A program made the position numbers and the translations under genes. Source: Candidatus Woesebacteria bacterium GW2011_GWA1_39_21 (GTDB lineage Bacteria > Patescibacteriota > Microgenomatia > UBA8517). From it: a stretch of 64,000 nt of DNA. Under the pieces are notes generated by a model. It saw only the letters and a list, made by a program, of their open reading frames with translations. It was not told where the DNA came from and ran no database searches. Below are positions 6,898 through 43,291 of the stretch, piece by piece (positions within the stretch are counted from its first letter, which is position 1; every line of letters begins with the position of its first letter). Where the stretch lies: assembly GCA_000993685.1 (NCBI GenBank), contig LBWP01000004.1:4055-68054 (forward strand), read 5' to 3'.

Positions 6898-7441
6898 TTT
6901 GCCTTGGAGGAGAGTAAGCCAGATTCTGTTTCCCCCAATTAAATCGGGGTTAGCAATCATCTGTCTATCTTAAAAATACCCTTGCGAATATTTTCAAGAT
7001 ACCTTGTTTGATAACACAAAGTAATCAACAAGATTGCCCTCAATCTTCGAGACTCGGAAAAGCAAACCTGTATCGTCTCGTTCGGAGGTTGCAGCGGGTG
7101 GGATTGTCGCGTTTCACCCCGCACCTTTCTTTTAAAAAAGTTTGGACTCGTCTCTGTGACTCTCTGAAAATGTTAATTCACCTTCAGCCCCGATTAGATC
7201 GGGGACCAGATGTTCTCAAGTACCAGAAGGTACTCAATATCATTCGGAGGTTACCCTCCGACCCCTTGCTTTTTGCTGTCTGGACTTTCCTCCCCGCCAC
7301 TTTACTTGTCAAGGCTATCGTTTTTCCACCCCAGAAAGGCGAAACGCCTCAAATGGCGTTGAGCAGTTTTCGGCTTCCTTTTCTGGATTCTCAAAAGTCT
7401 TTACCGGTAAAGAGGCGGGGCGATTGCCCTTCCTCCAAAGC
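6898..7441 (-). ncRNA. rnpB: RNase P RNA (bacterial type A-like) of about 540 nt, with an expanded P3 region.
   Basis: Minus-strand reading contains GGCGGGGAGGAAAGTCCAGACAGC (P2 3' strand plus the conserved P4 GGAAAGUCC, + coordinates 7288-7296). It also contains GGAGGGTAACCTCCGAA (P8/P9-like), AAAGGTGCGGGGTGAAAC (the GGUGAAA / P10-12 region) and ACAGAATCTGGCTTAC (the conserved P4 3' strand ACAGAAxCCGGCUUA, + 6914-6929). P1 is formed by TTGGAGGAAGGGC at the 5' end pairing with CTCTCCTCCAAGGC at the 3' end, and P2 by GCCCCGCC pairing with GGCGGGG. The region is locally GC-rich in an AT-rich genome. The overlapping 154-aa Arg-rich ORF (7008-7472) is an artefact. Confidence 0.82.
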
Positions 7442-7485
7442 AAGAATATTATACCATAAAAAGGATGAGTGAATACTATAAGATA

Positions 7486-8523
7486 TCACATTGGGGAACT
7501 CTTGTCTTTGTAGTTTTTACTCAAAATGCACTCCCTAATTACAACCTGTATACCCAAAACTACAGGGATGGCGATTATTGCGCCTGCTACTCCGTGGATT
7601 CGAAATCCGACACTCAAAGCAACCAGCGTAACCACAGGATCCAGGCCAACAGATTTTCTCATAATGTTGGGGACAATAATGTAATTTTCTAAATGCTGAA
7701 CAAGAAATGCTAATGCCGCAACGCCCACTCCGACAAAAAACGATTGACCGAATCCGATAATAACAGCAGGTACGGCAGCGACAAAAGGACCAACCATAGG
7801 AACAATTTCCAGTAAACCTGCTAAAATTGCCAAGGGCAACGCATAAGGAACTCTCAAAATCTCAAGTCCAACAAAATTCAACAGACCCACAATCAACATT
7901 AATAAAAGCTCACCTTTAGCCCAATTCCCAATATTGTTCTCAATTTTGCCAATAAGGTCGATCACCTTTTCCGCACGGATGTTACCAAGCCAAGTTCTAA
8001 TTGATCGGTCGATCTTCTCGCGCGACAAAAGCATATAAAAAGACAGAATTAAAACCATCACCACATTCAAAACATTCGAAGAAACGGAGATTGCTGTTTT
8101 TGCCAACTGGCTTGGCAGTTGACCAAGCTGTACCAAAAACTGCTGCAAAATCTGATCTTTAAAACCTGATGGGAGTGTAATTTTATTTATGTAATCGGGG
8201 ATGTTGGTTACAAAATTACCTGTTTCGTAAACCAAAGCCGGGGCAAGAATGTATATTGAAAAAGAAACGACACTTAAAAAGACAAAGTAAACAATTATTA
8301 CACCTAAAGTTCGTGGTACTTTTCGCCTTTCAAATTTCGCAATGTATGGTTCAAATGATGCAATAATCACAAAGGCTACCAGCAGTTGAAAAAGAATATC
8401 TCTTATGTAATATAAAAACCAAATACCCAGTAAAACAGAGACAAAAATTAAAACCGATTTGTACGTTACTTCAAATTTCTCATTCATTTTTAATTTAAGA
8501 CTCTCAAGTATTTTCTTAACCAA
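7486..8523 (-). CDS. AI-2E family transporter (PerM/UPF0118-like permease).
   Basis: 345 aa, polytopic, with the overall AI-2E/PF01594 layout (about 8 TM segments and a conserved central loop). Confidence 0.8.
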   Translation of the reverse strand: MVKKILESLKLKMNEKFEVTYKSVLIFVSVLLGIWFLYYIRDILFQLLVAFVIIASFEPYIAKFERRKVPRTLGVIIVYFVFLSVVSFSIYILAPALVYETGNFVTNIPDYINKITLPSGFKDQILQQFLVQLGQLPSQLAKTAISVSSNVLNVVMVLILSFYMLLSREKIDRSIRTWLGNIRAEKVIDLIGKIENNIGNWAKGELLLMLIVGLLNFVGLEILRVPYALPLAILAGLLEIVPMVGPFVAAVPAVIIGFGQSFFVGVGVAALAFLVQHLENYIIVPNIMRKSVGLDPVVTLVALSVGFRIHGVAGAIIAIPVVLGIQVVIRECILSKNYKDKSSPM

Positions 8524-12956: not shown

Positions 12957-13997
12957 TTATTCCTCAGTTTCTTCCCCAATTTCCTTTGGTATCTTTTTAC
13001 CTGAAGCAACTAACTCGCGAATCTTTTTTTCAATCTCGTCATAAAGTTTTTTATCCTCTTTTAAAAGCAGTTTTGCACCTTCTTTTCCCTTCTTTTCTAA
13101 AATTCCCAGTTCCGTTGCAACATCCAAAAGTCCACCGGTTTTAGAAATACCTTCATCATTCATGATGTCAAATTCAGCAACCCGAAGTGGCGGGGCGACT
13201 TTATTTTTGACAACACGCGCCCGATGACGCGAGCCGATAACCACATCTCCGTCTTTCAAAACTTCAATTCTTCTAACATCAATTCTCACTGAAGCGTAAA
13301 ACTTCAGTGCCAAGCCACCGGGTGTCGTTTCAGGATTGCCAAACATCACGCCGATTTTTTGTCTCAGCTGGTTTGTAAAAATCAGGATTGTTTTGCTTTT
13401 AGAAATTGCACCGGTTAGTTTTCGCAACGCCTGGCTCATCAACCGCGCCTGAAGTCCCATCACCGCATCTCCCATTTCACCCTCGAGTTCAGCCCTTGGA
13501 ACAAGTGCTGCAACAGAATCGATAACAATCACATCCAAAGCTCCGGATCTGATAAGTGTTTCCGCTATCTCTAACGCTTGCTCACCCGTATCAGGTTGAG
13601 AAAGAAGAAGATCGTCTAGATTTACACCTATCGTTTCAGCCCTCTCGGGATCCAACGCATGTTCAGCATCAATAAAAGCACATTGTCCGCCCATTTTTTG
13701 CGCTTCGGCAATAACATGCAAAGCCAAGGTTGTTTTCCCTGACGCTTCGGGGCCGTAGATTTCAATAATTCTACCGCGTGGAAGACCACCAACTCCAAGA
13801 GCAAGATCCAAAGCAATCGAACCTGTTGGTACTACATTTACCCTAAACTTTTCCTCCACCTTTTCGCCAAGACGCATAATCGCACCCTTACCGTACTGTT
13901 TCTCAATTTGATCCATTGCAAGACGTATCGCGGTTAATTTTGCGGAGGAATTTTCCTGTGGTACCGGCGTTTCAACCGGTTTACTTTTCTTAGACAT
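12957..13997 (-). CDS. recA: Recombinase RecA.
   Basis: Near-canonical RecA: [21 protein letters not shown], and the L1/L2 loops. Confidence 0.97.
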
Positions 13998-14188: not shown

Positions 14189-15193
14189 ATTAAGGTATTT
14201 TCTGACGTTTGCGGCGTGTTCCTCCGCGGTTTTTGCATAATGGATGGTTCCGTCCGGGGAATGAATGTAAAACCAGTAGTCAGACACTTGAGGGTCAAGT
14301 GCAGCTTGGAGTGACTCCAAACCGGGATTGCAAATCGGAGCCAACGGGAGACCTTTATACTTATAAGTATTATAAGGTGAGTCTACATCAAGGTCTTGTA
14401 GTGTAAGAACTGGCCACCAGTTAATATCTTTCTGCTTTTGCAACTTCAGACTTACATTTGCAACAGCATATTGAACACTCGCGTCAACTTGTAATGGCCA
14501 ACCGTTTTCGATTCTTTTCCATAGTATCCCGGAAACTATTGGTTTTTCAGAAGTTGTTTTTGTCTCCCTTTCTAATATCGAAGCCATTGTCACAATTTCA
14601 CCTTTAGTAAATTTGCTGTCGGCATATTTTTTTACAAGCGACTCATACTTATCATCAAAAGTCGATCTTAATCTTTCGAAAACGAGTTTTGCCGTTGCTT
14701 CTTTCGGAAAGAGGTATGTATCAGGAAATAAATACCCTTCTGATGTTTTTGCCAAATCCAAAAATTGCTCTTTAAAAACGATTGTCTCTTCAGAATTCAT
14801 CGGCAGAGATTCTGTAATTCTTAAAACAATTTCCTCCTTACGAAGACCCTCGGGAATAATCACCCAAAACTCTTTTGGGCCTTTCCCAAGTACACTTACT
14901 ATTTCAGAAACACTCATTGAAGGTGACAGTTCAAATTCACCCGCATTGATACTTTTTGTTTTATTTAATAATGTTACATAAATTTTAAAAACCAGTTGAT
15001 TTCTGATTAATCTGTTGTTATATAGAAACGAACCAATTTCACTAGCAGCCGTCCCTTTTGGAACAACAAAGGTTACCTTCTCTTCTGAATTTGAAACTGG
15101 GGTAAGTTCTTTTTTAAACCAGTAGTAAAAGGAGGACGCGGAAAAGATAACGACTATTAAAATGAGAACAAAAATAAAATAAATCCTTTTCAT
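14183..15193 (-). CDS. mltG: Endolytic murein transglycosylase MltG (YceG family).
   Basis: N-terminal TM anchor and the YceG signature region SPYNTYKYKGLPLAPICNPGLESLQAAL. Confidence 0.85.
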   Translation of the reverse strand: MKRIYFIFVLILIVVIFSASSFYYWFKKELTPVSNSEEKVTFVVPKGTAASEIGSFLYNNRLIRNQLVFKIYVTLLNKTKSINAGEFELSPSMSVSEIVSVLGKGPKEFWVIIPEGLRKEEIVLRITESLPMNSEETIVFKEQFLDLAKTSEGYLFPDTYLFPKEATAKLVFERLRSTFDDKYESLVKKYADSKFTKGEIVTMASILERETKTTSEKPIVSGILWKRIENGWPLQVDASVQYAVANVSLKLQKQKDINWWPVLTLQDLDVDSPYNTYKYKGLPLAPICNPGLESLQAALDPQVSDYWFYIHSPDGTIHYAKTAEEHAANVRKYLNK

Positions 15194-28673: not shown

Positions 28674-28701
28674 ATTTTTACTAAAACAATAGAAAAAACT
28701 T

Positions 28702-38296: not shown

Positions 38297-38323
38297 TTAG
38301 CACTCATCGGTTAATAATGCTAA
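38297..38323 (-). promoter_or_regulatory. CIRCE-like HrcA operator upstream of dnaJ.
   Basis: In the dnaJ orientation: TTAGCATTA-TTAACCGAT-GAGTGCTAA, against the consensus TTAGCACTC-N9-GAGTGCTAA (right arm 9/9, left arm 7/9, exact 9-nt spacer). It sits 45-70 bp upstream of the dnaJ start codon. Confidence 0.6.
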
Positions 38324-38589
38324 ACGTAAGTTATCCTTAAACACAGATACCACCCGCAGCGTATTAATATAAATCAGAATGTAATACCTGCAAACCAACA
38401 TAAACCACCACGGCTTGAAAGCCGTGATATTTTGTCGCCTGCGTTTAACTGCTTTAATCGCAAAAATTTGCTACAACCACGGCATAAATGCCGTGGTTTT
38501 AAGCAAAGTGACAATAAAAAAACGGGCAAAATGATGGATAAAACGTAACGAACGCCAGCACTGTGAGTAAAATCATTTCAAAAATCCTA

Positions 38590-38618
38590 TTGACAATTAT
38601 TAGTTAAATATTTATATT
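38590..38618 (+). promoter_or_regulatory. Candidate sigma-70-type promoter for the LexA-DBD fusion gene.
   Basis: TTGACA (38590-38595), a 17-nt spacer, then TATATT (38613-38618), 22 bp before the ATG at 38641. A small AT palindrome TAATA-N9-TATTA lies between the -10 and the start. The AT-rich context weakens the call. Confidence 0.35.
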
Positions 38619-38640
38619 TTATTAATATTCCATTAGTATT

Positions 38641-39726
38641 ATGTTAGTAAATTTAACACCAAAACAAAAGAAAATATATGAATTCATCAAAAAATTTTAT
38701 GACGAAAAAGGTTATTCTCCAACACTAAAGGAAATTTCTAAAAAATTTAAAACAACCACAACAACAGTCCACCAATTTGTAAAGGCGCTCGAAAAGAAGG
38801 AGTTCTTACACAAAACCAAAGGAAGTGTCCGAAATATCATTCCCATATCACAAAACCCAGCGGCCAGAAACGTTGTATCTAGACAACTCAGCATAGGAAT
38901 AATCGGGTACGGAATGGTTGGGCAAGCTGTCGCTTACGGATTTTCCAATGACAACATTTTCGTGTATGACAAATTCAAAGATTCGCTGGCCTTAACGGAA
39001 GTGTGTACAAAAAGCGATTACATTTTTATCTGCCTACCCACACCGATAAAAGAAGATGAGTCGGGAATAGACCTTTCAATAATCGATGGAAATATAAAAA
39101 AAATTACTAAATTCACAAACAGTACCGACAAGATAATTATTATCAAGTCAACAATCGTACCTGGAACAACAGAGAATTATATCAAGAAATACCCAAAATC
39201 ACTTTTTTGTTTCAATCCCGAATTTTTAACAGAACGCGCATTTTTACAGGATTTCATAAACTCCGATAGAATAATAATCGGGGCCGATAATTCACTCGTC
39301 TTCCGAAAAGTTTCTTCGATTTATCAATCAATCATGCCAAACACTCCAATCTTCCAAACAGATCCAACAAGTGCGGAAATGGTCAAGTACATGGCAAATT
39401 GCTTCCTGGCAACAAAAGTTATCTTTGCCAATGAAATGTATGACATCTGCCAAAGATTAAATATCAATTATGAGGAAGTTAAAAAAATGGTTGTTGCAGA
39501 TAAAAGAATCGGAGCGTCACATCTGGATGTTACATCACTTCGCGGTTTCGGACAAAAGTGCTTTCCGAAAGACTTATTGGCTTTAAAGGGTTTAGCAAAA
39601 AAAATGAAGGTTGACACAACTCTTTTGGATTCGGTTTGGAGTAAAAACTTAAAGATCAGAAAGATTCACGATTGGGAAGAGATCCCCTTCGCCGTTGGTA
39701 AGCCTTCGTTCGGAAATAAAAATTAA
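38641..39726 (+). CDS. Fusion protein: a LexA-type winged-helix DNA-binding domain (residues about 1-75) joined to a nucleotide-sugar (UDP-glucose/GDP-mannose) dehydrogenase-like NAD-binding and partial central domain, with no UDP-sugar-binding C-terminal domain. Putative transcriptional regulator.
   Basis: The N-terminus LTPKQKKIYEFIKKFYDEKGYSPTLKEISKKFKTTTTTVHQFVKALEKKEFLHKTKGSVRNI aligns with the E. coli LexA DBD ([63 protein letters not shown]). The C-terminal part has a Rossmann GxGxxG (IGIIGYGMVGQ), CFNPEFLTERAFLQDFINSDRIIIGAD (the UDPG/MGDP-DH motif xNPEFLREGxAxxDxxxPDRIxxG) and FLATKVIFANEMYDIC…GFGQKCFPKDLLAL (compare GYGGSCFPKD with the catalytic Cys). The protein ends about 70 aa after the Cys, and there is no S24 peptidase domain. 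Confidence 0.8.
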   Translation: MLVNLTPKQKKIYEFIKKFYDEKGYSPTLKEISKKFKTTTTTVHQFVKALEKKEFLHKTKGSVRNIIPISQNPAARNVVSRQLSIGIIGYGMVGQAVAYGFSNDNIFVYDKFKDSLALTEVCTKSDYIFICLPTPIKEDESGIDLSIIDGNIKKITKFTNSTDKIIIIKSTIVPGTTENYIKKYPKSLFCFNPEFLTERAFLQDFINSDRIIIGADNSLVFRKVSSIYQSIMPNTPIFQTDPTSAEMVKYMANCFLATKVIFANEMYDICQRLNINYEEVKKMVVADKRIGASHLDVTSLRGFGQKCFPKDLLALKGLAKKMKVDTTLLDSVWSKNLKIRKIHDWEEIPFAVGKPSFGNKN

Positions 39727-39984
39727 CACATGTTACTTGTTACACAAGCACTGTCTCACTTATACAATACTGGTTTAATTAAAGAGGTTAACCAAATATC
39801 TTTAATATTCTTCTTGCTAGACGCTCATGCAACTTTAACAAATAACTGGGGTATTTTTGTAAAAGTTGATGGTATGAAATTTTCCCTTCTACCCACTCGG
39901 TAACCGACCTAAAAAAGACGACTTGTTAATTATCAACTGCACAAACCTCAGATTTTGGAGTTCCCACAAAAGTATTTTCTAGTG

Positions 39985-43264: not shown

Positions 43265-43291
43265 TTAGCAGAATACTAACACGAGTGCTAA
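43265..43291 (-). promoter_or_regulatory. CIRCE HrcA operator upstream of hrcA.
   Basis: TTAGCAGAA-TACTAACAC-GAGTGCTAA (left arm 6/9, right arm 9/9, exact 9-nt spacer). On the minus strand it is preceded by TTGACA 6 nt upstream (candidate -35), and it lies about 65 bp upstream of the hrcA start. Confidence 0.6.

Follow-up and report, generated by a model that had tools for sequence, protein, structure and literature searches.

Trigger enzymes such as BirA, PutA and NadR are catalytic enzymes that carry a DNA-binding domain (DBD), repress their own or pathway genes, and couple DNA binding to catalytic or ligand state. Rex, a dimeric repressor that combines a winged helix with a Rossmann NAD(H) domain and binds palindromes, is not an enzyme. 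Winged helices of the OmpR/PhoB type bind the pho box, a series of 11-bp direct repeats (about 7 conserved and about 4 spacer bp). In the solved UDP-glucose dehydrogenases (UGDHs), the central domain is the dimer interface. Alphaproteobacterial LexA binds GTTC-N7-GTTC, i.e., 11-bp-phased direct repeats (PMC4951493). Here we describe a gene of Candidatus Woesebacteria bacterium GW2011_GWA1_39_21 (contig LBWP01000004.1) in which a LexA-type DBD is fused to a UGDH-like protein. The open reading frame (ORF), called the fusion gene below, lies at 38641–39726 on the plus strand of a 64-kb stretch of DNA (the window), and all coordinates are window positions. With moderate confidence, we read its product as an autoregulated bifunctional enzyme-repressor, a "trigger enzyme".

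The coding sequence runs uninterrupted from an ATG start to a TAA stop and encodes 361 aa; all its features lie on the plus strand. Residues 4–64 (38650–38832) form a LexA-type winged helix-turn-helix DBD, as the initial annotation had proposed. They matched PF01726 (LexA_DNA_bind; E = 2.5e-11, 43.6 bits) in a Pfam scan, in which matches were accepted above the curated threshold (gathering score 23.7 for this family). The NCBIfam lexA model TIGR00498 was matched over its first 70 positions only (39.9 bits vs. a cutoff of 110.95), and the PDB sequence search retrieved Thermotoga LexA 3k2z (4.9e-7). In the AlphaFold2 (AF2) model, the DBD had a predicted local confidence (pLDDT) of 75–93, with helices at residues 7–23, 29–36, and 40–52 and strands at 56–58 and 66–68. 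The recognition helix was located at about residues 40–52 (TTTVHQFVKALEK) and the wing at about residues 56–68. A variable, probably flexible linker follows (residues 65–83; 38833–38889), with a pLDDT below 50 at residues 72–79.

The remainder corresponds to the NAD-binding and central domains of nucleotide-sugar dehydrogenases, again as first annotated. The Rossmann domain (residues 84–240; 38890–39360) is abbreviated. PF03721 (UDPG_MGDP_dh_N) was matched at residues 114–218 by profile positions 66–178 of 187 (E = 7.9e-21, 74.9 bits); the first third of the canonical profile remained unmatched, and about 35 residues are deleted after strand beta2. The GxGxxG motif (residues 89–94; 38905–38922) and Asp110 are kept, and the conservation alignment placed KST(171) and NPEFLxE (residues 192–198) further downstream. 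The central domain, responsible for dimerisation and catalysis in UGDHs, spans residues 241–336 (39361–39648) and matched PF00984 (UDPG_MGDP_dh) at residues 244–336 (E = 2.9e-24, 85.4 bits). Lys249, Asn253, and GFGxKC(307)FPKD(311) lie in this domain, the Cys307 codon being 39559–39561, and the alignment with 4a7p, 3vtf, and 3gg2 extends across the GGSCFPKD motif. The dehydrogenase motifs quoted in the initial annotation were thus present, NPEFLTERAFLQDF starting at residue 192 and GFGQKCFPKD, including Cys307, at residues 302–311. A family-specific C-terminal tail (residues 337–361; 39649–39723) occupies the start of the expected UDP-binding domain. The best UGDH structure in the PDB sequence search was 4a7p (1.3e-29), and identity to solved UGDHs was 25–28% over approximately 300 aligned columns. 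The AF2 model (mean pLDDT 69.7) was confident in both its winged-helix and its Rossmann part, and Foldseek linked it to UGDH structures (E~1e-15).

Neither Peptidase_S24 nor the UDP-binding C-domain (PF03720) was detected in the Pfam scan of the fusion protein, and both had been expected to be missing. The linker is the least conserved part of the fusion alignment and has no invariant residues; hence, there is no conserved Ala-Gly self-cleavage site. The proposal of a DNA-binding regulator independent of RecA-stimulated cleavage agrees with these results. The stop codon lies 54 aa beyond Cys307, not about 70 aa as first stated. Only 258 nt (39727–39984) separate it from the convergent dnaK stop, which is too short a gap to encode a C-domain, and tblastn with a full-length UGDH revealed no C-domain-like sequence anywhere in the window (the match ended at residue ~336). 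These data speak against a hidden downstream continuation to a full-length dehydrogenase. Orthologues terminate at the same position, so the ORF is not a product of frameshift or truncation.

Conservation of the fusion was judged on the best 120 database homologues, on a genome scan at one genome per species (80 loci), and on a profile-free search that covered 1.8 billion representatives, with clusters counted at 50% identity. All 120 homologues were full or near-full matches (59–90% identity), and most of them had 355–361 aa and the combination PF01726+PF03721+PF00984. They originated from Woesebacteria, Collierbacteria, Pacebacteria, and unclassified Patescibacteria metagenome-assembled genomes (MAGs). 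Among the genome loci, a Shapirobacteria record (L017) also carried the fusion. More than 100 protein clusters of Microgenomates-type Patescibacteria carried the fusion, and a complete fusion was found at 19 of the 80 genome loci. At 59 loci (L022–L080) no complete DBD was present; most of these were standalone orthologues of 271–300 aa with 54–73% identity, from Daviesbacteria and others, including one Raymondbacteria and one contig labelled Woesearchaeota. L023 and L024 retained a partial N-terminal region. The search of related genomes suggested in the initial annotation therefore shows a recurrent architecture, and we regard it as nearly certain that the fusion is real and conserved.

A neighbour-joining tree of the enzyme unit placed all fusions in one clade, within which L021, L022, and L023, with truncated or missing DBD, were nested. 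This topology indicates a single gain of the DBD followed by occasional loss. Among 55 fusion proteins, mean pairwise identity was 50% for the DBD, 25% for the linker, 69% for the Rossmann domain, 78% for the central domain, and 71% for the tail, i.e., the enzyme part is the best conserved portion of the protein. Many MAG records with a Patescibacteria-type gene and synteny (L001, L003, L005, L006, L010–L012, L016, and others) are titled Gammaproteobacteria or Pseudomonadales, and these titles appear to be taxonomically wrong. The record of L077 is labelled Woesearchaeota.

A sigma-70-type promoter, the best in the region with 11 of 12 consensus matches, precedes the fusion gene on the same strand (38590–38618; −35 box TTGACA 38590–38595, 17-nt spacer, −10 box TATATT 38613–38618). 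The TTGACA box recurs at the equivalent position in nearly all fusion loci. Transcription would start near 38625, leaving a leader of about 16 nt without a Shine-Dalgarno sequence. Register analysis revealed a putative operator array on the plus strand at 38600–38649, composed of five half-sites at 11-bp phase: TTAGTT (38600–38605), TTTATA (38611–38616), TTAATA (38622–38627), TTAGTA (38633–38638), and TTAGTA (38644–38649). It extends from the spacer between −35 and −10 across the −10 box, transcription start and leader, and includes the start codon. The last half-site constitutes codons 2–3 of the fusion gene (TTA GTA, Leu-Val), and orthologues have ATG-TTAGGT or ATG-TCAGTA in the same register, or AAT GTA in L087. 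Since these codons double as a half-site, the N-terminal residues appear to be constrained by the DNA motif.

The array is specific to the fusion clade. Alignment of the 160 nt upstream of fusion genes showed a repeated heptamer immediately before the ATG; the element comprises 3–5 copies of aTTAGTAa in direct orientation, one every 11 bp. The dimer TTAGTA-N5-TTAGTA (≤1 mismatch) was placed exactly at offset −19 relative to the start codon in 12 of the 19 fusion loci and upstream of none of the 61 others (L020–L080), which have no complete DBD. Elsewhere in 258 kb of fusion-locus DNA it was matched only twice, and in the window its only occurrences were the two overlapping ones at 38622–38638 and 38633–38649 (0.2 expected). 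Two further matches with two mismatches, at 28679 and 53329 (the latter intragenic), were within chance (5.2 expected). Autocorrelation of the region from −70 to +10 reached 0.435 at lag 11 and 0.407 at lag 22 in 30 fusion loci, compared to a flat profile with 0.274 at lag 11 in 58 standalone loci; lag 11 was the top lag in 17/30 and 2/58 of them, respectively. No repeats were found at the nested loci L021 (DBD truncated) and L022 (DBD missing).

The half-site also covaries with the recognition helix, in three helix classes. Helices with T[IV]HQ[YF] or TIAQ are paired with T[TA]AGTA, helices with TVN[TA][YH] (six loci) with TTAGAT/TTAGAC, and the TIQQYT helix of L087 with AATGTAT, including codons 2–4 of that gene. 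We therefore consider the 11-bp array, on these comparative grounds, very probably the autoregulatory operator of the fusion protein. The AT palindrome TAATA-N9-TATTA, named initially as a candidate operator, was rejected: it arises where two of the direct repeats lie side by side, and the promoters of orthologues do not conserve it; the conserved element is the TTAGTA direct repeat with 11-bp period. Verrucomicrobia LexA was also discarded as a precedent for direct repeats because it binds a palindrome.

The second half of the argument concerns the enzyme. Residue conservation was counted over 90 sequences, both fusion and standalone. G89, G91, G94, D110, E194, E198, K249, N253, C307, K310, and D311 were invariant (90/90), and T171 was present in 89/90. 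From UGDH enzymology we take G89, G91, G94, and D110 to be NAD-binding and T171, E194, E198, K249, N253, C307, K310, and D311 to be catalytic. The near-invariance of both sets in fusion and standalone forms makes an active enzyme, rather than a sensor only, probable. In the tail motif W333-x2-N336-x3-R340-x3-D344-W345-x3-P349-F350, common to fusion, standalone, and distant short forms, W333, N336, D344, and W345 were invariant (90/90) and R340 nearly so (89/90); W333 and N336 are located at the end of the central domain, just before the tail.

Enzyme halves of this type are widespread. At E<1e-30, 754 clusters were retrieved, most of the best 150 matches having 250–310 aa, and family lengths in a metagenome sample were bimodal (241–330 vs. 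412–497 aa). By its sequence, the enzyme half of the fusion belongs to short-form two-domain UGDH-like proteins of approximately 260–300 aa, a grouping that we define here by an abbreviated Rossmann domain, lack of the C-domain, and the conserved tail W..NL..R...DW, all of which it displays. A split enzyme with a separately encoded UDP-binding domain was considered and rejected. No separate C-domain gene was found in the window, within ±8 kb of the 80 CPR (Candidate Phyla Radiation) loci, or near 35 of 36 short-form metagenome loci, only L099 having a match; 38 C-domain-bearing loci of the metagenome set, essentially of canonical length, served as the positive control.

The genomic associations of the short form point to a functional link with nucleotide-sugar metabolism. 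It is naturally fused with NTP_transferase (sugar-phosphate nucleotidyltransferase), NAD epimerase/dehydratase, family 2 glycosyltransferase (GT2), and adenosine phosphosulfate (APS) kinase. NAD epimerase/dehydratase was the commonest immediate neighbour in the metagenome set (18/36), which also included GT2, UDP-GlcNAc 2-epimerase, DegT aminotransferase, and sugar C-methyltransferase. An epimerase of the short-chain dehydrogenase/reductase type adjoined the short-UGDH gene in only 3/80 CPR loci. In a cyanophage (L171; T4-like Phage C48C1, OQ984149.1 36267–37226), a 319-aa short UGDH directly follows a nucleotide-sugar epimerase, the pair being set among genes for DNA polymerase, primase, DNA methyltransferase, DNA repair, and DnaB. 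Similar pairs were found in many low-GC marine metagenome contigs (L094–L120). Inteins (Intein_splicing + LAGLIDADG) were observed in the short UGDHs P0134, P0231, P0249, and P0252, at the end of the central domain by the catalytic Cys region. Taken with the conserved catalytic set, the nucleotide-sugar associations suggest that the C-terminal 280 residues make up a functional short-form dehydrogenase for nucleotide sugars or related compounds, and the enzyme half of the fusion is probably catalytically active.

A catalytic domain, a DBD, and an operator at the gene's own promoter, the features of a trigger enzyme, thus occur together at the level of sequence and comparison. We propose the following mechanism. 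The short-form dehydrogenase would oxidise, most likely, a nucleotide-sugar-type substrate with NAD+. In one Microgenomates-type clade, this enzyme would have gained a LexA-type winged helix once, on a flexible linker of ~18 aa. The short UGDH core would oligomerise via its central domain, taking over the role of S24 in LexA, and the linker-tethered heads would bind head-to-tail to neighbouring sites that share one face of the DNA at 11-bp spacing. To fill three to five of them, two or more dimers or an oligomer of higher order would be needed, and we propose that binding is cooperative. The repeats overlie the stretch from the −10 box through transcription start and leader to the first codons, so that bound protein is predicted to block RNA polymerase; this promoter-occluding arrangement would result in negative autoregulation of the enzyme level. 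In a last and speculative step, DNA binding may be tuned by what fills the active site, whether NAD+/NADH, substrate, or product. The linker puts the Rossmann domain beside the dinucleotide-binding loop, and ligand occupancy could therefore modulate binding.

Several points weigh against this interpretation. DNA binding, repression, enzymatic activity, and the substrate are inferred from sequence comparison. To our knowledge, no characterised UGDH, by structure or biochemistry, functions without the UDP-binding domain, which makes the activity and substrate of the short form uncertain. The nucleotide-sugar dehydrogenase model TIGR03026 (NCBIfam) scored 182.1 bits, just below its cutoff of 189.8, over profile positions 69–296 of 413, and the AF2 model was poor at the active-site loop (residues 282–308) and in the tail (residues 339–361). 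The best three-unit 11-bp array scored 27.6/33 in fusion loci vs. 22.3/33 in standalone loci (Mann-Whitney p = 3.5e-14), but such p-values overstate independence because the loci are related and the fusion upstreams are AT-richer (76% vs. 69%). A sub-clade with a shorter linker (L017, L088–L090) has reversed or inverted repeats, i.e., the operator grammar is not uniform. A target scan of approximately 320 kb from fusion-bearing genomes gave one candidate second site, in L016 (Collierbacteria): ATAGTA-N5-TTAGTA at 14271–14287, which precedes a 79-aa ORF (14309–14548) by about 22 nt and which the fusion protein may target as well. Finally, ligand-gated DNA binding is plausible, and we give it rather less than even weight.

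A stronger version of the same reading makes the protein a metabolite-gated factor, in which NAD(H), a UDP-sugar, or the product sets head occupancy, and adds to it a class of mini-UGDHs that work without the UDP-binding domain. The ligand would alter the oligomeric state or conformation of the core and, in this way, the number of LexA-type heads on the array, which would link transcription to envelope-sugar or redox status in these regulator-poor bacteria. The mini-UGDHs would be a widespread class, present in CPR bacteria and in T4-like cyanophages. Substrate recognition by the mini-UGDH could occur via the W..N...R...DW...PF tail, or the substrate could be a non-nucleotide compound. We consider this combination possible but doubtful.

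Less likely still is a pure ligand-sensing repressor, close to the Rex-like sensor built on a truncated dehydrogenase that was suggested initially. Such a protein would be non-catalytic, NAD(H) or UDP-sugar would switch its DNA binding, and its regulon could be wider. The combination of winged helix-turn-helix and Rossmann domain does resemble Rex in logic, the UDP-binding domain needed by all characterised UGDHs is absent, and one possible extra site exists (L016). The fusion gene is also monocistronic in the window and in most CPR loci, and no glycan genes adjoin it in the window. However, the catalytic residues are kept equally in fusion and free-standing forms, and a large family of free-standing enzymes shares them. 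Conservation is higher in the enzyme part than in the DBD, the DBD was lost while the enzyme was retained (L021, L022), and the operator is essentially confined to the gene's own promoter. Rex-family domains were not found in the Pfam scan of the fusion protein down to E = 1. These data favour the bifunctional enzyme-repressor over the sensor.

We judge it improbable, too, that the repeats are not the operator of the protein but belong to the promoter or leader as such or are bound by a different factor, the DBD acting elsewhere or not on DNA. The repeats are AT-rich, as is the leader, which has no Shine-Dalgarno sequence, and the shorter-linker sub-clade is arranged differently. The array, however, is present only together with the DBD and was lost with it in L021 and L022, and its half-site follows the recognition helix through all three classes.

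A substitute for LexA, i.e., an SOS repressor that acts without self-cleavage on recA and repair genes in lineages deprived of canonical LexA, is very improbable, although the LexA-type DBD is there. As the initial annotation had noted, no canonical lexA was found in the window, and the 8 kb on either side of fusion loci likewise gave none, whereas 12/61 standalone loci had a canonical lexA (~206 aa) no more than 8 kb away from the short-UGDH gene, often divergently (L025–L027, L029, L036, L037, L040, L048, L049, L051 at 7046–7666 on the minus strand, and L058, among others). In L036, the promoter of the standalone gene has a perfect palindrome, ACAGAA-N4-TTCTGT, in its −35/−10 spacer. These neighbours and the palindrome are hints of SOS control of the standalone form or of the source of the fused DBD. 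Clustering of neighbours at CPR loci yielded mostly housekeeping and DNA-repair genes, and repair genes are common neighbours in other lineages; such neighbourhoods probably reflect clade synteny, not function. Against a role in SOS, no TTAGTA array was found near recA (12957–13997, minus strand) or, apart from the fusion gene's own promoter, elsewhere in the window, also when 2 mismatches were allowed (the two matches given above being within chance), so the operator search proposed for the recA upstream region gave no sign of recA control. The protein also has neither the S24 domain nor the Ala-Gly site, and its TIGR00498 score is far below the cutoff.

A heat-shock co-regulator tied to the HrcA/CIRCE regulon through the dnaJ control region is just as improbable. 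The idea rests on position: the fusion gene lies between dnaK and dnaJ, divergent from dnaJ and convergent with dnaK. A CIRCE-like element (controlling inverted repeat of chaperone expression), correctly predicted next to dnaJ, was confirmed upstream of it at 38297–38323 (2 mismatches to TTAGCACTC-N9-GAGTGCTAA; 0 expected by chance), and a second one was found upstream of hrcA at 43265–43291 (3 mismatches to the same consensus). It follows that dnaJ keeps its own HrcA operator despite the inserted gene that separates it from dnaK. The physical tie to HrcA control claimed for the fusion gene is, however, positional only, since the gene has its own strong promoter and operator (38590–38649) ~270 bp from the CIRCE-like element. 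In a comparison of synteny across 90 related loci, the order dnaJ-fusion-dnaK was confined to the closest, Woesebacteria-type relatives (L001, L002, L003, L021, and L087), and the gene was found in unrelated contexts in the other fusion lineages (Collierbacteria and others); a functional heat-shock link was rejected on this basis. The window scan detected no TTAGTA array upstream of dnaJ, dnaK, grpE, or hrcA. The SOS and heat-shock implications of the initial annotation are thus not supported. An assembly or gene-calling artefact joining two genes can be practically discounted, given an uninterrupted ORF of 355–361 aa in more than 100 independent clusters or contigs (NCBI, JGI, ENA, Logan).

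The intergenic region between dnaJ and the fusion gene is 388 bp long and AT-rich. GC-rich hairpins, CCACGGCTTGAAAGCCGTG at ~38408–38426 and CCACGGCATAAATGCCGTGG at ~38476–38495, the latter followed by TTTT, look like terminators or a small RNA (38400–38495). A structured RNA in this region was rejected, since no Rfam family was matched (only psRNA14 at E = 0.14) and the sequence is not conserved in relatives. Window-wide, neither a tRNA gene (ARAGORN) nor an Rfam family at the gathering threshold was detected.

Literature searches turned up no account of the fusion, of its operator, or of short UGDHs as a class. The initial statement that the architecture is undescribed holds in this sense for its characterisation; many copies are nevertheless present in databases under the generic names "helix-turn-helix domain-containing protein" and "nucleotide sugar dehydrogenase". 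Both domains are known, the sequences are public, and no new regulatory principle is involved: the fusion is an enzyme-repressor hybrid and, seen from its N-terminus, a LexA-type DBD whose effector domain has been exchanged. CPR/Patescibacteria have tiny genomes with few recognisable regulators, almost none of which is characterised, and in the fusion they have a conserved regulator whose operator is sharply defined and whose own enzyme part provides a read-out. If our reading is right, it would be the first transcription factor on a UGDH-family enzyme and a second, independent LexA-type head reading 11-bp direct repeats. The existence of a large uncharacterised family of two-domain short UGDHs, spread over CPR bacteria and cyanophages, calls into question the textbook view that the UDP-binding domain is required. 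The analysis also corrects two tempting annotations, "LexA-like SOS repressor" and "heat-shock operon member".

Compared to known systems, the fusion protein shares with LexA a winged helix, closest to the solved 3k2z, on a flexible linker before an oligomerising domain; it probably autoregulates, as LexA does, and its 11-bp direct repeats recall those of alphaproteobacterial LexA. Unlike LexA, it lacks the S24 domain, a cleavage site and, as a consequence, the RecA-triggered route of inactivation; its half-site is TTAGTA, in 3–5 tandem sites vs. one dyad, none of them at recA in the window. With UGDHs (TIGR03026; 4a7p, 3vtf, 3gg2, 1dli) it has in common the GxGxxG Rossmann fold, the central helical domain, KST, NPEFLxE, the K..N helix, and a GGxCFPKD-type motif; it differs from them by the missing UDP-binding domain and ~35 missing Rossmann residues, with a 25-aa tail instead. 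It differs from BirA, PutA, and NadR in fold and chemistry, and its coupling to a ligand is hypothesised, self-regulation being the only regulation visible. To Rex it is non-homologous, with strictly conserved catalytic residues and a direct-repeat array. Its DBD is of another family than that of OmpR/PhoB, and it has neither a receiver domain nor phosphorylation; by analogy only, its operator nevertheless has the same 11-bp geometry, read by tethered winged helices on a symmetric dimerisation module.

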